From a virus (lineage: Duplodnaviria > Heunggongvirae > Uroviricota > Caudoviricetes), in IMG/VR virus record IMGVR_UViG_2737471835_000006: 53,176 nucleotides of DNA; one strand, given 5' to 3'. The position numbers and the translations under genes are program-made. The notes beneath the pieces are model-generated. The model searched no databases. It had not been told where the DNA came from and saw only the letters and a list, made by a program, of their open reading frames with translations. Each line of letters opens with the position of its first letter. Position 1 is the stretch's first letter. Positions 2,943-49,720 of the stretch are shown in pieces.

Positions 2943-4579
2943 CCCGCCGCCGCTGGTTTATCAAACATTGCACCACGGTTGTACGAACTCGCAACTTGTC
3001 TCAGCCCGTCGAGCACACCCGATGCAGCAGCCTGCTGTGTTGATTGTGGATCTGCCGCTCCGATAATATTGATTTCAATTTTATTGTTTTGCTCTGGCGC
3101 TGGAGTTGCGACTGCCTGTCTCAGCGCGTCAATATTCAACGTTGCTGAGTTTTGTGATTCAGGCGTTGAGTCTTTATTTATTAATCCAGTAAACGGGTTA
3201 GCAAACGAGAGCATTGATTCAGCCTGTGATTTTGCACGAGCAAGACGTTCAGGGTGCCGCATATTATCGACGGCTTCGTCGGCTTTTGCTTTTGCTACAT
3301 TATCTGCTGCCAGTCCTGGGTTCGGTGAATATTTACCACCACTATCCATGAATTCCTGATACGCTTTATTATATTCTTCGTTATATACGCGCTGTTCCTC
3401 GTCTGTTTTCTCGTCTGGTATTAACCACTCCAGTTTTTTTACGACTGCCCAAATTATTTTTCCGAATTTAACGCACGCCTCGCCAAAACTGACTATCCCC
3501 TCCCACATTTTTTTCATATTTTCTGGCTTAACCCATTCTTTAATACTATCAACAACCCCCCCTTGATTCTCTTTAAACCAGGATGCCAGCCCGTCTCGCA
3601 TAGCGTCAAACGTCGGCGCGAGTTCCCCTCCGATTTTCCCGAGAGTATCTGCCAGCCCCGATGTGATTGCCCCCCACAGATTCGTGACGGATACGTGCGC
3701 GCGCGCTGCACCCTCAGCCCCTTCTTTCGTTAGCAGGTTTGATTTTTGAGCGTCCGACAGAGTCTGCTCCCAGCTTTTACCAGTCGCCCGCATATAAGTC
3801 ATTATTTTATTAGCTTCCCCCCCCATGAGCTGATCAGCCAGACTCGCCGCCTGTTGATCATCCTTCATTTCAGAGATACGCCGCATAACTTCATTGAACT
3901 GTTTTTCTCGATCCCATTTAGCCATCCGTTTTTTTGTCAGGCCAATTTGAAACAACATGGGGTTCAGGTTTTTTTCGTTTCCAACCTCCCCGATTTTATT
4001 AGTCAACTCCTCCGACAGATCTCCTACGTTTTCGCCATTCAGCCCTGCAGCTTTACCAATATTTTCCCACGCAGCGTATTTTTCGATGCCAACACCGTAG
4101 GACTTCGCCAGACCGAGTTTTTCTGACGTCTCTGCATTCATTGCCAACGCGCCAGCAGCCGCGCCGCCGAGCAGACCCACGGCCCCCAGCGTCCCCCATT
4201 TGATACCCCGTCCCGTGGCCCTCACCGCACCTGCGGCGGCTCGCCCTCCCCATTTTGCAGCACCTTTTGCGCGCCCCGTCCACTTCTCCAGCCGCTGTTT
4301 TTTGGCGAGCTGAGTATTCAGAGCTTCCTGGTCCTGTGTTGTCGCTTTTATCCGACGGTCCAGCTTTTGATACTGAGCAGATAAATCAGAAACGTCTTTA
4401 CCCGCCAGTTTCATTGCTGCGATTTTGTCTTTTAATTTATCCTGGCTTTTCGTTAATTTTCCGACAGTAGACGACGTCTGCCGAATTGCATCGTTGAGTT
4501 CTGTTGTACCGCGCCGAAACGACGGGTCTATTCTCCCCCCAAATACAACCTGCGTTTTAAAGTTTTGAGAAATAGCCAT
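2939..4579 (-). CDS. Tail tape measure protein
   Basis: 546 aa; coiled-coil N-terminal region, Gly/Ala-rich putative membrane segment (GTLGAVGLLGGAAAGALA), position between tail chaperone and gpU. Confidence 0.7.
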   Translation of the reverse strand: MAISQNFKTQVVFGGRIDPSFRRGTTELNDAIRQTSSTVGKLTKSQDKLKDKIAAMKLAGKDVSDLSAQYQKLDRRIKATTQDQEALNTQLAKKQRLEKWTGRAKGAAKWGGRAAAGAVRATGRGIKWGTLGAVGLLGGAAAGALAMNAETSEKLGLAKSYGVGIEKYAAWENIGKAAGLNGENVGDLSEELTNKIGEVGNEKNLNPMLFQIGLTKKRMAKWDREKQFNEVMRRISEMKDDQQAASLADQLMGGEANKIMTYMRATGKSWEQTLSDAQKSNLLTKEGAEGAARAHVSVTNLWGAITSGLADTLGKIGGELAPTFDAMRDGLASWFKENQGGVVDSIKEWVKPENMKKMWEGIVSFGEACVKFGKIIWAVVKKLEWLIPDEKTDEEQRVYNEEYNKAYQEFMDSGGKYSPNPGLAADNVAKAKADEAVDNMRHPERLARAKSQAESMLSFANPFTGLINKDSTPESQNSATLNIDALRQAVATPAPEQNNKIEINIIGAADPQSTQQAAASGVLDGLRQVASSYNRGAMFDKPAAAG

Positions 4580-4687: not shown

Positions 4688-4969
4688 CTATATCTGATGT
4701 CGGTCTTTCGGGTGCTTTACCAGTTCGTTAAACGCGGCCTCCAGTTGATCGTAATCGCACGCGGGGAGCGCATATAAATCCTCTCTCTCCAGATTTGCCA
4801 GGCGCGCCAGCATTGTCGCTGTCCGCTCTTCAAGACCGCTTTTATCGTTACTGAACATAATGCGGTCGCGTAATTTTGGTTCGCGAATAGTAATTGTATC
4901 GCAGCTCTCGCCCTTAATAATAAATGGTCGAGAGAGCGTAATAGTCATACTGTCTAATAATGATTCCAT
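4688..4969 (-). CDS. Tail assembly chaperone (P2 gpE position)
   Basis: 93 aa acidic protein between tail tube and tape measure genes; no obvious slippery heptamer for an E' frameshift was seen. Confidence 0.4.
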   Translation of the reverse strand: MESLLDSMTITLSRPFIIKGESCDTITIREPKLRDRIMFSNDKSGLEERTATMLARLANLEREDLYALPACDYDQLEAAFNELVKHPKDRHQI

Positions 4970-32169: not shown

Positions 32170-32441
32170 AGCGATTTCCTTTTAGTCGGATAATCACCCC
32201 CCTCAGGTGCAAATCTTTGGGTGGTGAGACATGCAGGGTTTGCACTACCGGCTAAAAGGACCCGGCGAGCCTTTCGACTCCCCTACACGCCCCACCATAA
32301 ATCGCGGATGTGGCTGTGCGCACGACAATAAAAAAGACGCTGGCGCGTCGTTGTCGCCTTTTAGATATCCGGGGTGCAAATCCCGGCAACCGATTTTGCG
32401 GCTGCGCGGAAACTATAGCCCCGGGCTTTTTCTAAGTCAAT

Positions 32442-33706: not shown

Positions 33707-33744
33707 TGGTCTTTCCTCGGTTATTTCACGCTGGTCAGGCGTGG

Positions 33745-36999: not shown

Positions 37000-37197
37000 C
37001 TAAGCTTTTTCATGTTTTGGAACATCGTAAAAAGTCGGGTCATATTTCAGTGCTCCGTTAGTGATATGGTCGAGTCGAGCAGCTCGCTTTTCAGGAACTG
37101 TTGCCCCCCAACGAGTAACCGCCACTTGAGATATACCCAGCACCTTGGCTGTGGCTGTCTTTGAACCAAAAAAACTAATAACCGTCTCTGTTTTCAT
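37000..37197 (-). CDS. Cro-like HTH regulator
   Basis: 65 aa; HTH segment TATAKVLGISQVAVTRW; strong SD GGAGGG; divergent from the repressor gene. Confidence 0.6.
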   Translation of the reverse strand: MKTETVISFFGSKTATAKVLGISQVAVTRWGATVPEKRAARLDHITNGALKYDPTFYDVPKHEKA

Positions 37198-37209: not shown

Positions 37210-37260
37210 TAACTTTTGTTAGCAAAATAAATACTAACGAAAGTTATGTCAAGTTAACTT
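37210..37260. promoter_or_regulatory. Operator region of the repressor/cro switch
   Basis: 15-bp inverted repeat TAACTTTTGTTAGCA / TACTAACGAAAGTTA separated by 7 bp, plus palindrome AAGTTAACTT. Confidence 0.55.
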
Positions 37261-37265
37261 ATATT

Positions 37266-37679
37266 ATGAGGATGAAGAATTTGATGCTTAGCGACCGTTT
37301 ATCTCAAAGACGCAAACAGCTTGGTCTAACCCAACAACAGCTTGCTGATATGGTTGGAAGATCGAGTGTGAGCGTTTTTAAATGGGAAAGCGGACAAAAT
37401 GAACCAAAAGGTCAGAACTTGCTGGCTTTGGCCAATGCACTTAAGTGTTCTGCCACATGGCTGCTTTTTGGTGACGAAGACCAGGCGCCAACTCCGGTAG
37501 ACGAATTACCAACAGAGCTGGATTCACGTCAAAAAAGATTGTTAGAGTTATTTGATTCATTACCCGAGTCAGAAAAAGAAAAGCAACTAATTGAATTAGA
37601 AGATAAAGTTGAAAACTTTAATCGTTTATTTGAAGAGTTACTGGTTACCAGAAAGAAACTAACCCCCATCAAAAAATAA
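37266..37679 (+). CDS. XRE-family HTH repressor (CI-like) lacking a LexA-type peptidase domain
   Basis: 137 aa; HTH LTQQQLADMVGRSSVSVFKWESG; acidic C-terminus; start codon choice among the first three Met is uncertain. Confidence 0.7.
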   Translation: MRMKNLMLSDRLSQRRKQLGLTQQQLADMVGRSSVSVFKWESGQNEPKGQNLLALANALKCSATWLLFGDEDQAPTPVDELPTELDSRQKRLLELFDSLPESEKEKQLIELEDKVENFNRLFEELLVTRKKLTPIKK

Positions 37680-37682
37680 AAT

Positions 37683-37718
37683 AAAGGCAATGTTTTCAAT
37701 GCATTGCCTTTATTTTTA
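37683..37718 (+). terminator. Rho-independent terminator after the repressor gene
   Basis: 10-bp stem AAAGGCAATG/CATTGCCTTT followed by ATTTTT. Confidence 0.7.
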
Positions 37719-37858
37719 CCCCAAATACTAACTTTTGTTATAAAACACCTTGCGCATAAAATTACCTTTAGTTATATTCATTCCATCAACAACGCTTACC
37801 CAGCGGCAGTTGTTCAGAAAAACGTTCCGCTACCCGGCGTTAAGGGAAAGGAGAAGAG

Positions 37859-38083
37859 ATGGAACTTCGTAAGGTTTCAATTGCGGCAGGAAGTGCCGTT
37901 GGTCCAGTAGCTTTGGCCTTGGTCGAGAATCTTCGCAAGATCTCAGGTGAACTCAACGCTAAGGATGCAGGTGATGTTCTTGCGATATTAAGTGGCGCCA
38001 TCGATAAGTTTGATGGCGCGCAAATGGATGAGGCTACTTTCTGGGAATCGGTTTGTAATCAGTTACTAGAAGCAACTTATTGA
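37859..38083 (+). CDS. Hypothetical small protein
   Basis: 74 aa; strong SD AAGGAGAAGAG upstream of the ATG. Confidence 0.4.
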   Translation: MELRKVSIAAGSAVGPVALALVENLRKISGELNAKDAGDVLAILSGAIDKFDGAQMDEATFWESVCNQLLEATY

Positions 38084-38267
38084 ATATTCCCAGGCTGAAA
38101 TCATCACCCGGATAAAGCTCTGATTTAGCTTTTGCAACATGCTTTGATAGGTCGGATTTCTCCTCGTAGCTCATACGACCAACCAACGCAGACAGTATTA
38201 CCTGGTGAGACTTTAGCTCCTTTTTAAGTAAAGCCAGTTCATCTTTAAGTTGTTCAAGCTCTGACAT
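38034..38267 (-). CDS. Hypothetical coiled-coil small protein
   Basis: 77 aa; convergent with and overlapping the 37859-38083 ORF by about 50 bp, so at most one of the pair may be real. Confidence 0.3.
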   Translation of the reverse strand: MSELEQLKDELALLKKELKSHQVILSALVGRMSYEEKSDLSKHVAKAKSELYPGDDFSLGIFNKLLLVTDYKPIPRK

Positions 38268-39005
38268 AAGAAAATCCTTTTTTGTTGTGTGGGCATTAAA
38301 GGTAGCACGACCGGGCGTGTTGAAAAATCCCGGAACTTAATTCTTCGGGTCGCCGACAGCACGATGACAGAGGGAAAGACTTCACCGGCATATGGCACAT
38401 GTGTCGAAGCGGTCTGGATGGAAGCGGAGCCTTAACGCGTTGTCTCCATAGCAGGTAGCCGGAATGTGCAAGCCACAGCCAGGTATGAGCGATTGATTCA
38501 CCATCAAGGCGATACGGTGTGACCACCAGGGAAGAGTCCTGGCTACAACACGAGAGCGCACTTCATCGACTCAACTTTGAGCTTTGTCGTTAAATTTTGA
38601 AATGGCGGAGTGCGCTCCCGGTTGTGGTGAACAGGTGTTTAACGGGAACTCCCTGCCCGTTACCCGGTTCGATTCCGGGCGCCCATCATCAATTTGCTGT
38701 GTTTAGTCTTTGCCCAGTCCGCACGATGGGCCATTTTTTCACACAGCCAGGTTTTATCGCTGTGCCTGAGTCCCCAACAGGAGAGGCCAAACCCGCAGCG
38801 TGACACCAGGGAAAGACCGGAGGAAGCACCACGCCTGACCAGCGTTGACCATGAGCCTGACCAGCTCAAAACAGGAAAGACCAGCCCCGTACGGTCGTGA
38901 TGGAAACATAACGACGCCGGAAACGTAACCGGCACCCTTTAGATAGCAAAAGACCCGCACAAGGCGGGCCAGTTACCCCGAACGGCGACCAAACCATTCG
39001 GATTT

Positions 39006-39029
39006 ATCACAAGTGACCAAACTTGTGAT
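39006..39029. promoter_or_regulatory. Perfect 9-bp inverted repeat ATCACAAGT-N6-ACTTGTGAT
   Basis: Read directly; lies upstream of the early-left operon. Confidence 0.4.
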
Positions 39030-39113
39030 GAGGAAAGACCAACGACACTGACGCTATGGAAGCTGATCAATATTCGCTGATCGGTCCCGAGTATACATTA
39101 CCAAGGAGTCGCT

Positions 39114-39434
39114 ATGGAAGCGCGCACCATCCCAGTAACACTCTTTATTCATTATGCAACTTCAACTTTCAGCCATGAAAAGCTGCTTATTGCGACGGTT
39201 GATATGTCAAAAAATTTTCCAGACAGGTACATCCTTATGGAAAGCCGCGAAATTGAAATTACCGTCAACCAGCCCCAGCCAATCGACATCATCGGTTTAC
39301 AGGTTCAGCAGCTGCGTGAGCAAAAACAGAAAACAGCCGCCGACGCCCAACAGCGTATTGCTGCTATCGATGACAAAATCCAGCAGTTACTTTGCATCGA
39401 ATACACGCCAGATACCGTTGAAATCCCCTACTAA
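39114..39434 (+). CDS. Hypothetical protein (first gene of early-left operon)
   Basis: 106 aa; SD AAGGAG 6 nt upstream. Confidence 0.45.
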   Translation: MEARTIPVTLFIHYATSTFSHEKLLIATVDMSKNFPDRYILMESREIEITVNQPQPIDIIGLQVQQLREQKQKTAADAQQRIAAIDDKIQQLLCIEYTPDTVEIPY

Positions 39435-39464
39435 AGACCACTGACCTGTAATGAGGAAAGACCA

Positions 39465-41681
39465 ATGACCATTTTTAACGGCTTGTTAGAAGCGAAAAAA
39501 GGTGCGCTCAAAAACGGCGCGATCCCGGCGCTGGCCATCGCCATCGACGCCCCTAACAAAAAAGTTGCCGAGAACATCATCATCGGCAAATTGTGGGAAG
39601 CCTACCCTGACCACGGCGACAACTATTTCAAACCTAAAATCTGGGAAGATGCCCCGGGCCAACCGCGCCCAGGCGTCGGTGAGTTTGATGAGACGTTTGC
39701 CACAGAACACAGTTTTGATGGCGAGAGATGGGTAGTTAACACTCCTGTTGATTCAGGTTGCAGTTCAGCAGATATCTCACAGGTTAGCGACCTGATGAAA
39801 CTGCCTGCTCGTGAACGCTTCGCCGCCGTCCTGCTGTTCAGCCACGATGCCAACGAAGTCGACAGTGAATTGCTTGCGCAGACGCGTGAATACCTGGAGA
39901 TGCTCGACAACAGTGATACTGACAGTGAGGATGAGGTTGACGCGTTTAACCGCATCGTTCTTGATGCCATGGTGGCGTGTAAGCCCATCGAGTACATGCA
40001 TATTGCTGGATTGAATAATCTGGTACATGCAATTTTGGCAAGTTGCGATACCCAGGAACAAAACCCGACCAGTTGGACTATCTCCAAATTTATAAAAAAA
40101 TGGGTAGAGAATCCCGGTAAACGCGATGAAATGCTGCCGGAGGTAAAACCAGAAACAGCATCCGCACGTCCTTACCAACAGACTCACGCCACACTGGATC
40201 GTGAAATTGCCTGCGCCCTGTTACCCGTTGGCCCGGAAAAAATCACCCCCAGCATCCTGAAAGCGGCAGACGAAATAATCAGTCAGGACAGGGAAGATTT
40301 TAAACGCTGGTCAATGGCCTTGCGCACAACGGATCAGATCCTTGCCTATGACCGTGCATCAGTATTCGGTGTTATTCAGAGCGCCCCCGCAAAAGACACG
40401 TACCACTTCCCACAATCCCTGCGCAGTCACATCGACAACTGGCTGCAAGCTAACGGGCAGCGTGATGCAAATGCTGTTGAAGAGAAGCCAAAGGAAGCAG
40501 CACCAAAGGATGATGTAAAAGTCACCAACCACGGCGGCGGACGATTCTCAATTGATGGGATGATGTCAGAAACACCCTCAAATCAGGGCGAAAAAAGCGA
40601 AGCTGCAAATGCTGGAGAACGTAGTTTGCAGCAGTTGCGTGAGCAGTTTGTCACGCCTCGCCATGTGTATGACGTACCTGAAAATAACGCCGTATCACAG
40701 AGGGAACCTGCAGCAATTACCCTGGCAGAAGAGACTCCTCCACAAGAAAAACTTAGCGAGCAGGTAAAGGATCTGGTGCAGAACGTTGACGCGCTGGTTG
40801 AGCGGGTCCATACCGAAGAGCACAAGCGGCAGAATGCAATCTCAGCTATCGAAACGGAGTTAAAGGACTCCGACGACACAGATAACCTGGCATTGTGGAA
40901 GAACGTATTCAAAACCGATGAGCGCTTCACCAGTGCTTTCTCTCAGAACGGCGGCGGCACATCCATCAACGGCACTTATATAGCGATGAAAGCGACTCGC
41001 GAATTTGGGCCGTTTGGTATTGGCTGGGGTGTAGAGGTGGTGGAAGAGCGTTTTGATAAAGGCGCACCGATAGTTCGCAAAAAACAGGTTGGTGAAAAAA
41101 TAGAATGGGATCTGATTCAAGACGGTGTTGGCGGGTACCTATGTGAAATGCACCACACCATGAAAGTTAGAGTCTGGTACATATTGAATGGAGTGCGCGG
41201 TGAGTCCGAGGCTTACGGATGCACACCTTATATCTACGACACTAAATACGGACCAACAAGCGACGGCGAAGCGCCGAAGAAATCCTGGACGGATGCTGTT
41301 AAGAAAGCGCTATCCCCTCTCGGATTCAGCGCCGATATTTTCATGGGCCTGTACGACAATCCGGAATACCGCCAGAGGAATAAAGCTGAGTTTGATATCA
41401 AGAATGCCAGCGAAAATGCGGAAGATGCTACCCGTCTGCGTAAGGAACTGGATGAGAAGCTTATCAACGTTGCCAATACGCTGGCCGCCGCGGTAACCGC
41501 CAACGAAGTAAACAAGGTATTTGGCCTCATCGCCCGCGAAGTGGATGTACACAGGAAAGCAGCGGAAGCCAAAGGCGATAAAGAATATTCATCGTATCTG
41601 GGATCACGTCTGCGCCGTATCAGCGACATCAAAACCGAACGCCTCGCCGCTCTCGCCGCCGCACAGGAGCAAACAGCATGA
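39465..41681 (+). CDS. Large early-left protein with C-terminal Rad52/Sak-like single-strand annealing domain
   Basis: 738 aa; C-terminal REFGPFGIGWGVEV ... EAYGCTPYIYD ... KKSWTDAVKKALSPLGFSADIF resembles Rad52-family SSAP motifs; acidic N-terminal half of unknown function. Confidence 0.45.
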   Translation: MTIFNGLLEAKKGALKNGAIPALAIAIDAPNKKVAENIIIGKLWEAYPDHGDNYFKPKIWEDAPGQPRPGVGEFDETFATEHSFDGERWVVNTPVDSGCSSADISQVSDLMKLPARERFAAVLLFSHDANEVDSELLAQTREYLEMLDNSDTDSEDEVDAFNRIVLDAMVACKPIEYMHIAGLNNLVHAILASCDTQEQNPTSWTISKFIKKWVENPGKRDEMLPEVKPETASARPYQQTHATLDREIACALLPVGPEKITPSILKAADEIISQDREDFKRWSMALRTTDQILAYDRASVFGVIQSAPAKDTYHFPQSLRSHIDNWLQANGQRDANAVEEKPKEAAPKDDVKVTNHGGGRFSIDGMMSETPSNQGEKSEAANAGERSLQQLREQFVTPRHVYDVPENNAVSQREPAAITLAEETPPQEKLSEQVKDLVQNVDALVERVHTEEHKRQNAISAIETELKDSDDTDNLALWKNVFKTDERFTSAFSQNGGGTSINGTYIAMKATREFGPFGIGWGVEVVEERFDKGAPIVRKKQVGEKIEWDLIQDGVGGYLCEMHHTMKVRVWYILNGVRGESEAYGCTPYIYDTKYGPTSDGEAPKKSWTDAVKKALSPLGFSADIFMGLYDNPEYRQRNKAEFDIKNASENAEDATRLRKELDEKLINVANTLAAAVTANEVNKVFGLIAREVDVHRKAAEAKGDKEYSSYLGSRLRRISDIKTERLAALAAAQEQTA

Positions 41682-42478: not shown

Positions 42479-42673
42479 ATGCTGCGATGGCAACCGGGAG
42501 CAACTCTGCTCTCCGCATTTGATATCAAAATTGGCCGACTGTCGGCCAGCGTCAGGAAACAGGCCTTGACCGAGTCTGATATTGCCCGTGCCTGCCATGT
42601 GGCAGATGACGCAATAAGCTACATAATGAGGAAAGACCATGAACGATCTGTTAAACGACGAGGAACTGGTTGA
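42479..42673 (+). CDS. Hypothetical small protein
   Basis: 64 aa from the Met preceded by SD AGGAGG (7-nt spacer); the six-frame ORF starts 30 nt upstream. Confidence 0.35.
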   Translation: MLRWQPGATLLSAFDIKIGRLSASVRKQALTESDIARACHVADDAISYIMRKDHERSVKRRGTG

Positions 42674-43967: not shown

Positions 43968-44037
43968 TGGCGGAGAGAGGGGGATTTGAACCCCCGGTAG
44001 AGTTGCCCCTACTCCGGTTTTCGAGACCGGCCCGTTC
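43968..44037 (-). tRNA. tRNA-Ser (anticodon CGA) 3' fragment; att core copy, not a complete gene
   Basis: Minus strand reads anticodon arm CCGGT-CTCGAAA-ACCGG, long variable arm, T-arm GGGGG-TTCAAAT-CCCCC, acceptor 3' strand TCTCTCC and CCA; no complementary 5' acceptor strand exists upstream. Confidence 0.6.
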
Positions 44038-44163
44038 ATCAAACAAAACAGCAACTTAGCTCACATTATGAGGAAAAGTATCTTTTTTGTACTATGTAAA
44101 TTCAAAGGGTTAGCCTCATTTCCCAGATGGTTTTCTCAACACTATTAGTTGTGAGCCCTTGCA

Positions 44164-49135: not shown

Positions 49136-49720
49136 TTACATTGTGTCTGGTTCTTCCGGCCACTCAATATCAGGTGCAGTTGTTGTATTAACACGGTTCA
49201 GCAACACCCGATACTTCTTCCAGGCTTCCAGCAACGAGGTTTCTTCCTCCGTTGCAATTTCCAGATCTGCAGCATCCTGAAGCGGCGCAATATGCTCACT
49301 GGCTACCTGCATCAGGCTGTTTTTTGTTTCTTCCGCCTCCCGGATCCGGAACAGTTTTTCTGCTTCTGCATCTTTCACCCAGGCTGTGCCGTTCCACTTC
49401 TGATATTCCCCTCCCGGCGACAACCAGGTAACATTTTCCGGTAACGGACCGAGTTCAGAAATAAATAACGCGTCGCCGGAAGCCACGTCATAAACCGTTT
49501 TACCCCGATGGTCTTCAACGAGATGCCACGATGCCTCATCACTGTTGAAAACAGCCACAAAGCCAGCAGGAATATCTGGTGGTGCAATATCGGTACTGTT
49601 TGCTGGCAGACCTGTATGAGGCGGAATATATGCGTCACCTTCACCAATAAATTCATTAGTCCCGACCAGCAGATTATAAATTTTTATGGTCCGTGGTTGT
49701 TCACTCATTCTGAATGCCAT
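49136..49720 (-). CDS. tfa: Tail fiber assembly protein, lambda Tfa
   Basis: 194 aa, near-identical over its length to lambda Tfa as recalled ([18 protein letters not shown] ... [51 protein letters not shown]). Confidence 0.85.

Follow-up and report, generated by a model that had tools for sequence, protein, structure and literature searches.

In this work, we analyzed the virus record IMGVR_UViG_2737471835_000006, a stretch of 53,176 nucleotides referred to here as the window, and specifically positions 38270-39113, which a previous sequence-only reading had described as an apparently non-coding early-left leader. The central result is that the + strand encodes, at 38339-38739, a non-coding RNA array of modular build whose cassettes are shared by many enterobacterial phages. 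On this strand the predicted early-left promoter PL is followed by small hairpins, a core structured RNA, a long-stem hairpin (H1), what we read as a decayed tRNA, and a module resembling the small RNA (sRNA) RprA, whose terminator ends at 38739; downstream of the array come ~370 nt of orphan ribosome-binding cassettes with two conserved hairpins, and then the early-left genes. We establish here (i) these elements and their order, (ii) the covariation and the coding strand of the core, (iii) the homology of the last module to RprA, and (iv) the recurrent order promoter, core, terminator, genes. What matters most in the interval escaped the sequence-only reading, namely the conserved structured RNA of 38384-38548 and the module homologous to RprA at 38687-38739. 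The five sequence features that it did list are all present at or beside the places it gave for them, and are peripheral.

The core was located with a covariance model, R1, which found a single copy in the whole window, at 38384-38548, and no second copy in the PR or late operons of the window. Its parts are the following.

38384-38548, + strand: core structured RNA, ~160 nt, pseudoknotted (covariance model R1, 138 bits).
38386-38406, + strand: core helix P1.
Within the core, + strand: helix P2, which closes a variable hairpin.
38454-38472, + strand: invariant junction GGUAGCCGGAAUGUGCAAG.
Within the core, + strand: helix P4, which carries a CACC/GGUG pseudoknot.
38526-38542, + strand: helix P5, CCAGG-GAAGAGU-CCUGG.

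Comparison of 29 diverse copies in an alignment gave support for four helices and two proposed pseudoknots, GCACA/UGUGC and CACC/GGUG, with 97.5% of the cells in standard pairs and 11 pairs changed on both sides. When 80 distinct sequences were fitted to R1, 97.3% of the cells were paired and double changes were present in 12 of the 22 pairs. Shuffles matched these observations in 0-1 of 500 cases for the 29-sequence alignment and in none of 500 for the 80-sequence fit, and slid-partner controls paired 25-46% and 29-44% of the cells, respectively. Several core pairs are predominantly G-U, which would be C-A if read on the other strand, and the + strand is therefore the RNA strand. The variable hairpins differ in length between phages, and the alignment contains 59 invariant columns. 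The covariation statistics rest on related sequences that were gathered through an exact 19-mer, which makes the junction look more conserved than it is. No terminal stem closes the core, whose ends are local hairpins. Folding by energy alone was uninformative (array, z = -1.6; second half of the leader, z = -2.45).

With E up to 10, none of the 4227 models of Rfam 15 hits the core of the window, none matched the cores of 17 other loci at gathering thresholds, and literature searches with core sequence strings and keywords gave no paper describing it. The core fits none of the described RNA families; structured leader RNAs of phages, the kind to which it belongs, are already known. The sequence-only reading had suspected a structured RNA in this interval, and a strongly covarying one is indeed present, but the motifs on which that suspicion relied are not part of it: the T-arm-like hairpin, for example, is lineage-specific and absent from the syntenic prophage L004.

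Sensitive blastn searches showed that 38386-38557 is ~74% identical to unannotated intergenic DNA in very different phages, namely the epsilon15-like phages SPN1S, Tyrion, PAT1 and BUCT554 (between the terminase and portal genes), Klebsiella phages, and the P1-like phage-plasmids D6 and SJ46 (between tRNA genes and ban/dnaB). The invariant 19-mer GGTAGCCGGAATGTGCAAG occurs in at least 120 IMG/VR contigs and in 24 GTDB species representatives, 22 of which are Enterobacterales and two probably mis-binned contigs of metagenome-assembled genomes. These two, labelled Oscillospiraceae and Bacillota (L140 and L152), carry the exact enterobacterial 19-mer, and their bin assignment looks doubtful. The core was found in 669 of 5426 E. 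coli genomes (~12%), including 206 plasmid records, with no annotated feature under it among the matches listed. It is also present in 84 phage records, including Stx2a and Stx2c (Shiga toxin) converting phages, cdtI, mEp390, mEp460, phiV10, TL-2011b and P7, and Salmonella phages are among its carriers; SfV lacks it, though its early-left genes resemble those of mEp460. Host assignment likewise looks doubtful for the 'Stenotrophomonas' phages BUCT708 and BUCT709 (L004 = OM816835; OM816834), which are syntenic with this E. coli prophage and have a leader ~72% identical to it. Only one of the 92 sources scanned has two copies, L028, with cores ~800 nt apart at 3994-4154 and 4801-4959 (- strand). 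In epsilon15 (L157, 1501-1604) the first ~52 nt of the core are retained and are followed by an annotated terminator and gene 50; immediately before this remnant, the authors of that record annotated a repressor site and a putative RNase III site.

The position of the core is recurrent as well. At least five lambdoid immunity groups, Stx2a_1447, mEp460 and mEp390 among them, have it ~60-230 nt after the repressor gene with the early-left genes behind it, and inspection by eye revealed a promoter-like sequence between repressor and core in most of these prophages. In SopranoGao, a terminator and a promoter (TTGCAA-18-TATATT) end 7-9 nt upstream of the core. A crude scan placed a strong terminator 240-670 nt past the core 19-mer in about half of 117 distinct arrays, usually with no open reading frame (ORF) of 60 aa or more before it, and unrelated ORFs usually begin ~100-170 nt past that terminator. 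Across the loci examined, the core consistently lies at or near predicted transcript 5' ends, upstream of genes of the same orientation.

The second major element closes the array.

38687-38739, + strand: module resembling processed RprA, with seed GCUGUGUUUAGUCUUUGC (38696-38713), terminator stem (38712-38731) and U-tract (38734-38739).

RprA (RF00034) is the best sub-threshold match of Rfam in the region (37.4 bits, E = 0.019, 38631-38741; the gathering score of 70 was not reached), and the 3' half of that match alone aligns convincingly. In a local alignment, 45 of 54 positions (83%) are identical to nt 54-104 of E. coli RprA, for which we used a reference sequence present exactly in 5422 genomes; the terminator ...CACGAUGGGC-U6 and the seed block GCUGUGUGUAGUCUUUGC are shared, and in L039 the similarity also takes in AACAACGAA, upstream of the seed. 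The homology spans the same part of RprA as its natural processed species, the last 47 nt, which is made by RNase E (PMC6202311), coexists with the full-length sRNA and is enough for one mode of narP repression (PMC9262595). In contrast, the first ~53 nt of RprA are lacking from the phage module, and with them two stem-loops, including the seed-bearing one ~nt 31 from the 5' end that targets hdeD (PMC5861431), and the central region, nt 30-70, that pairs with narP (PMC9262595); upstream of the homology the phage has the tRNA remnant. Whereas RprA is a gene with its own Rcs-controlled promoter, the module is the predicted 3' end of a long leader transcript. The seed GCUGUGU(G/U)UAGUCUU(U/G)GC is found in 23 loci, always 205-903 nt downstream of the core 19-mer and on the same strand, and the terminator stems vary among these loci with compensatory changes. 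As judged from its sequence, the module is a new, phage-borne and truncated putative member of the known RprA family. The sequence-only reading had considered an sRNA, and a module with a seed and an intrinsic terminator, homologous to RprA, is what stands there. Keyword searches of the literature for an "RprA-like" phage sRNA found nothing.

Two ideas about this module were abandoned. Pairing of the sRNA with the GGAAAGACC ribosome-binding cassettes was not ranked by an RNAduplex seed scan of the window, only a 6-bp core being possible, and an origin of the RprA fragment at an attachment (att) site does not fit a prophage that integrates at tRNA-Ser ~5 kb to the right. Directly past the U-tract, ACACAGC (38741-38747) complements the seed portion GCUGUGU (38696-38702), and seed complements of 5-7 nt are found at the same position in L004, L098 and L060. 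This element could hide the seed in read-through RNA or be there by chance, because the seed is a UG repeat, to which short complements easily arise.

The remaining modules of the array flank the core.

38345-38356, + strand: small leader hairpin UCGG-GUCG-CCGA (counterpart in L078, found by eye, GCGC-GUCG-GCGC).
38370-38383, + strand: small leader hairpin GAGG-GAAAGA-CUUC (counterpart in L004, found by eye, GCGG-GAAAGA-CUGC).
38545-38625, + strand: H1 hairpin module, whose long stem, ACAAC-ACGAGAGCGCACU / AGUGCGCUCCCG-GUUGU, encloses a variable interior (inverted repeat I6).
38626-38686, + strand: tRNA-derived remnant, with a hairpin (38641-38661) and a T-arm (38663-38679).

Both small-hairpin counterparts show compensatory stem changes and identical loops. 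In 15 sequence variants, homologues of H1 stand on one side of the core or the other, and in their stem A-U is replaced by G-C at least once. In L004, L011, L015, L027 and L132, the 5' strand of this stem reads AUGA(A/G)AGCGCAC and opens ORFs of 14-24 aa (MKAH.../MRAH...) that vary in length and sequence; the window has ACG in place of AUG. We rejected these tiny ORFs as genes on account of their variable length and their absence from the window, and set aside an rrn/lambda boxA in the 3' strand of the H modules (UGCUCUUU), which is base-paired inside a covarying stem.

As for the tRNA-derived remnant, the sequence-only reading had noted a T-arm-like hairpin CCCGG-TTCGATT-CCGGG preceded by AACGGG-N9-CCCGTT and had stated that the two do not complete a cloverleaf. 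Both were found, at 38663-38679 and 38641-38661, and the cloverleaf is indeed incomplete, with a putative anticodon loop of 9 nt and a mismatched acceptor stem. ARAGORN detected no tRNA there, Rfam RF00005 gave no match at E up to 10, and the best tRNA-type match of Rfam was to tRNA-Sec (19.3 bits, E ~1, cut-off 47). The motif GGTTCRANTCC occurs twice in the window against 0.25 expected, its other copy belonging to a real tRNA-Ser fragment at the prophage end. The remnant is confined to this lineage and E. whittamii (L133) and is missing from the syntenic L004. Genuine tRNAs lie within -400 to +1000 nt of the core in 48 of 156 arrays, often tRNA-Arg(UCU) downstream or tRNA-Met(CAU) upstream. 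In our view, 38626-38686 is a tRNA cassette that has decayed.

The window is an E. coli lambdoid prophage. Its 1 kb between 38200 and 39200 matches E. coli SE11 with 100% identity, 451 of 5426 complete genomes carry related DNA, and the SE11 prophage ends with an integrase gene adjoining tRNA-Ser and mtfA. The surroundings of the array are as follows.

37000-37197, - strand: P22-Cro-type gene (gene order around the interval).
37266-37679, + strand: HTH_3 repressor gene (Pfam, ORF list).
37678-37716: hairpin terminator of the repressor gene (promoter/terminator scan).
37723-37762, + strand: OL operator and PL promoter-like site TTGTTA-16-TAAAAT (promoter scan), outside the array and its feeding promoter.
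Between the repressor gene and the non-coding gap: a 74-aa ORF (+ strand) and a 77-aa ORF (- strand) (Pfam, ORF list).
37840-38338: ~500-bp insertion in the PL leader relative to L078 and L004, carrying the 74-aa ORF (+ strand) and the convergent 77-aa ORF (- strand) (leader comparison, ORF list, Pfam).
After the gap, all + strand: a 106-aa gene starting at 39114, a 738-aa gene, a Gp157-family gene, a DUF4224 (xis-like) gene and the integrase gene (ORF list, RefSeq, Pfam).

The operator TAACTTTTGTTA is common to OR (37210-37221) and to 37729-37740, both operators having the form TAAC-N4-GTTA, and its OL copy overlaps the -35 element of the promoter-like site at 37735-37762. Promoter and terminator calls are consensus matches here, and on this basis the site is the predicted PL. 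As it is PL, ~37770 to 39113 would be the early-left leader, in line with the sequence-only reading. PL has the same position in syntenic prophages with other immunity specificities (L004, L043, L078 and L098), in which a conserved leader start (CAUCAAC..GCGGCAGUUGUUCAGAAA) joins directly to the sequence beginning at window position 38339; since the syntenic relatives lack the intervening DNA, the window carries a ~500-bp insertion at 37840-38338. The 77-aa ORF of this insertion is absent from the RefSeq annotation and has a weak ZapG-like match under the Pfam cut-off. The repressor, a 137-aa HTH_3 protein, lacks an S24 peptidase domain, and PGAP calls the identical SE11 gene 'frameshifted'; lacking that domain, it may be that induction depends on an antirepressor and not on RecA-mediated cleavage.

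We identify the interval as untranslated leader of the early-left (PL) operon, in a prophage that lacks a recognisable N gene. That it is non-coding had been proposed before, and hidden coding capacity was rejected: the ORFs inside 38270-39113 reach at most 91 aa and none has a Pfam match, RefSeq annotates no coding sequence in the identical SE11 DNA, and insertions and deletions (indels) relative to related prophages measure 1-20 nt, are not multiples of three and thus break the frame. Elsewhere in the window, the tRNA-Ser fragment at 43968-44040 (- strand) consists of the 3' ~60 nt only, from the anticodon arm to the 3' end, whereas SE11 has a complete tRNA at this place. It looks like a prophage att junction, with the window appearing to run on into a different element than in SE11; because this tRNA is only partial, ARAGORN and Rfam detect no tRNA in the window. 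Other RNAs above their Rfam gathering scores are a C4 antisense RNA at 32217-32302 (- strand), which adjoins isrK at 32330-32405 (- strand) and forms with it a P1/P4-type RNA regulator pair in the same prophage, and an IS009 match at 49179-49377 (- strand).

Between the array and the first early-left gene, the leader contains the following.

38804-38883, + strand: degenerate junction repeats (repeat families D4, D12, D16 and D17).
38804-38820, + strand: P5-like hairpin CACCAGGGAAAGACCGG.
38833 and 38855, + strand: two copies of GCCTGACCAGC.
38873-38883, + strand: orphan AGGAAAGACCA.
38916-38933, + strand: conserved hairpin GCCGG-AAACGUAA-CCGGC.
38952-38970, + strand: terminator-like hairpin, with its T-run on the - strand in this window.
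38987, 39015 (hairpin loop) and 39037 (after a Shine-Dalgarno (SD) sequence), + strand: GACCAA, three times within 55 nt, kept in all four lineages compared.
39006-39029, + strand: palindrome hairpin AUCACAAGU-GACCAA-ACUUGUGAU.
Within 38987-39046, + strand: orphan initiation cassette GAGGAAAGACCAACG, with ATG changed to ACG in the window.
Within 39047-39113, + strand: 17-nt lineage-specific insertion, which creates a duplicate of CGCTATGGAAGC.
39056, + strand: start of a 40-aa upstream ORF.
Within 39047-39113, + strand: ribosome-binding site of the 106-aa gene.

Among the relatives compared, conservation in 38740-39113 is patchy and rich in indels. The motif GGAAAGAC lies at 38373, 38810, 38874, 39032 and 39455; its count in the window is 8 against 1.5 expected, a number reached in none of 100 shuffles. 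Four of its copies form the SD and spacer of real genes, as GAGGAAAGACC(A/G)ATG at 33709 (-), 36427 (-) and 39455 (+) and as GAGGAAAGACCATG at 42630 (+), and the unit CCTGACCAGCG...GAGGAAAGACCRATG precedes the real genes at 33709 (-) and 36427 (-). Thus AGGAAAGACC is the ribosome-binding cassette of four real prophage genes, and its leader copies at 38810, 38874 and 39032 are orphans; the copy at 38373 is the loop of one of the small covarying hairpins. The four copies singled out by the sequence-only reading are present, and the motif is enriched, but the copy at 39455 falls outside the interval to which it was assigned and is the ribosome-binding site of the 738-aa gene, and there is a fifth copy at 38373. 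The orphan at 39032 (repeat D2) shares 88% identity with the region where the 738-aa gene truly starts, and the ATG of this orphan is intact in L004 and L098.

The hairpins of this part covary too: the terminator-like one has CCCGC/GCGGG in the window and CCCAC/GUGGG in L098, where the U-run is on the + strand, so that 38952-38970 may be a second terminator. The inverted repeat at 39006-39029, described before as ATCACAAGT-N6-ACTTGTGAT, is there as described. It has four completely different stems in four lineages around an identical GACCAA loop and 3' flank, and is therefore an RNA hairpin. As an operator it was discarded, since its half-site is nowhere near OR or OL, whose operators are of a different form. 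The previously noted duplication of CGCTATGGAAGC was likewise found, at 39052 and 39110, with the first copy inside the 17-nt insertion. An RfaH ops element inside GGUAGCCGG was dismissed by eye, its critical T11 and G12 being unmatched.

Taken together, the explanation that we favour, with a little better than even confidence, is that of a PL leader with a modular array in which termination and processing would yield an RprA-like sRNA while the core acts in cis. Once the repressor is lifted, PL would transcribe the array. Transcripts ending at 38739 would be trimmed by an RNase E-type cleavage at CA|AUUUG, and the trimmed RNA would be an Hfq-type RprA mimic, acting in trans on the host targets of RprA. 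The core would act on the polymerase or the transcript, allowing a fraction of transcription to survive the untranslated, terminator-containing leader and to reach the recombination, xis and int genes, according to the logic of a put-like, protein-independent antiterminator in place of N/nutL. A cis role is favoured because the core lies where lambda has N/nutL and HK022 has putL (PMC9378689), because no N-like protein is annotated or detected, and because the core sits near 5' ends and is usually followed by a strong terminator and then by unrelated genes of the same orientation. Moreover, its conservation far exceeds that of any of its cargo, as one would expect were host machinery the partner of the core. 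Concerning N, no ORF for a protein with an arginine-rich motif is annotated in the PL operon of this or related prophages, and Pfam, whose coverage of N is limited, found none among the early-left ORFs.

Several points weigh against this explanation. We infer the cis-antitermination role from position only, and the core shares neither sequence nor architecture with HK022 put. The conserved seed and the strong terminator at the end of the array argue that termination is wanted, which is awkward with an efficient antiterminator upstream; besides, the terminator of the window is weak (a 5-bp stem, with CA before the U-tract), and simple leakiness could therefore suffice. The window has one core only and its PR operon none, in contrast to HK022 with put sites in each of the two operons, and epsilon15 retains only 52 nt of the core, which is therefore dispensable there. 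Furthermore, where RprA and the other phage copies have G, the seed of the window has U. A bolder proposal, which we regard as rather doubtful, would make the core a new class of cis RNA that modifies E. coli-type RNA polymerase or blocks Rho with no phage protein involved: a second, unrelated solution to the problem of HK022, on which N-less lambdoid phages, Stx2a and Stx2c phages among them, would rely and which epsilon15-like, P1-like and Klebsiella phages would have taken over as a portable leader for moron/tRNA cassettes; it would be coupled to the release of an RprA mimic that reprograms the host upon induction.

The main rival explanation is a self-contained non-coding RNA operon, in which the core, as a stable RNA acting in trans, would bind some conserved protein or RNA of the host as a decoy, sponge or scaffold, being co-transcribed with tRNAs, tRNA-like modules and the sRNA and then excised, and the genes being served by leaky termination or by promoters of their own. 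We consider it less likely, yet it fits module shuffling and tRNA association equally well. Most arrays are closed by strong terminators and contain no ORF, bona fide tRNAs occur in the 48 of 156 arrays mentioned above, module order shuffles (H1 on either side of the core, two cores in L028), the 59 invariant columns suggest contact with a conserved partner, and the cargo ORFs past the terminator are mutually unrelated. On the other hand, the core lacks the closing terminal stem that is usual for excised stable RNAs, and it consistently occupies a place near the 5' end, upstream of genes of the same orientation, which a trans-acting RNA need not do. Another reading, that the interval is mostly functionless DNA, made of leftovers of a tRNA, deleted genes and a captured piece of rprA, agrees with a T-arm piece that is not a tRNA, with the ATG to ACG change of the orphan cassette, with the patchy, indel-filled second half and with the truncated core of epsilon15, but it is at odds with the covariation and the almost unchanging junctions that the core shows in at least 80 distinct sequences of many genera, with the invariant RprA-like seed and its compensatory terminator stems, and with the covariation of second-half hairpins. 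Covariation refutes decay for the core and the sRNA, and decay applies only to parts of the second half; as an account of the whole we judge it very improbable.

Two further explanations assign a local regulatory role to the leader. A device of the P4 CI/P1 C4 type, in which an sRNA, cut by RNase P from the leader through tRNA-like structure, pairs with complementary stretches of the same leader and causes premature termination or a block of translation, timing or limiting early-left expression, seems improbable to us. It would account for tRNA-like pieces and an sRNA in a leader ending at a terminator, for the 7-nt seed complement ACACAGC right after the U-tract (with similar ones in L004, L098 and L060), and it would resemble the C4/IsrK pair used elsewhere in this prophage. 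Nevertheless, Rfam gives no C4 match in 37900-39600 at E up to 10, no inverted repeat (exact 8-nt seed, extended to at least 10 nt) links the array to the downstream leader or gene starts, the best seed duplexes elsewhere in the window are unremarkable, and a UG-repeat seed finds short complements easily; being under repressor control, PL would not make the RNA in a lysogen to give immunity. Least probable of all, and already largely refuted, is a nut-like leader, as the sequence-only reading had also suggested, or a cluster of Cro/repressor sites, with GAAAGA-loop hairpins as analogues of boxB and the palindrome as an operator. The location downstream of PL fits, and purine-rich GAAAGA or GAAGAGU loops recur in a boxB-like manner (38370-38383, 38526-38542 and 38804-38820), but no boxA (CGCUCUUA) with up to one mismatch was found on the + strand from PL to 39113 (37770-39113), neither annotation nor searches reveal an N-like gene in this phage or its relatives, and the palindrome is unrelated to the cI/Cro operators (TAAC-N4-GTTA), its arms differing among relatives around a conserved loop, which is the behaviour of an RNA hairpin; AGGAAAGACC, as described above, is a ribosome-binding cassette.

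The core is common, yet absent from Rfam and from genome annotation, and R1 can be used to annotate these loci, which now attract spurious small-ORF calls. It is a concrete candidate for how N-less lambdoid phages, some of them with Shiga toxin, pass early terminators and, if this is true, it would offer a new handle on phage gene timing and on the induction of Stx prophages. The RprA-like module, if true, would be a phage copy of the active fragment of a core-genome sRNA, the mirror image of phage "anti-sRNAs", and a possible route from induction to the Rcs/RprA regulon (narP).

Several known systems can be compared with this array. The boxB loops of lambda are GAAAA or GAAGA; the GAAAGA/GAAGAGU hairpins of the window exist and covary, with loops of 6-7 nt rather than 5 and with several of them present. 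P4 CI and P1 C4 are leader-processed antisense RNAs that pair with the same leader and are tied to a tRNA-like structure and a terminator. Like P1/P7 C4 and P4 CI (RF01695), the RNA described here lies inside the leader of the operon that it precedes, near a tRNA-like structure and a terminator, but there is no RF01695 match here and no extended complementarity to downstream targets. GOLLD and ROOL are large phage-associated RNAs associated with tRNAs, and the core is likewise phage-borne, highly structured and often next to tRNA genes; it differs from them in lacking an Rfam match, in being much smaller and in occurring in Enterobacterales rather than in Firmicutes or environmental lineages. 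Some array modules resemble Y RNA (YrlA) in having a long terminal stem that encloses T-arm-like hairpins. The YrlA motif GNCGAAN0-1G (PMC4201824) is present in the window (GUCGAAG) but is not conserved across the core family, Rfam scans of the window and of the other loci gave no Y RNA-type family, and no Ro60 gene is annotated nearby; with an unconserved motif and no Ro60 gene, a Y RNA identity was ruled out.

The closest parallel is the put RNA of HK022, a folded RNA just downstream of PL in an N-less lambdoid phage, upstream of the terminators that have to be passed (PMC9378689). The core is likewise found just past an early promoter of an N-less lambdoid phage and upstream of terminators. 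For put itself, read-through of terminators is factor-independent and is lost in rpoC zinc-binding-domain mutants. R1 gave no match in the HK022 immunity region, the putL sequence is unrelated to the core, and HK022 was not among the matches listed by blastn for the core (45 of 84 phage records listed). Whereas put comprises ~70 nt with two stems and a triplex, the core has ~160 nt, four helices and pseudoknots; it occurs once per phage, with none in the PR operon, and it is also carried outside immunity regions, in epsilon15-like, P1-like and Klebsiella phages.

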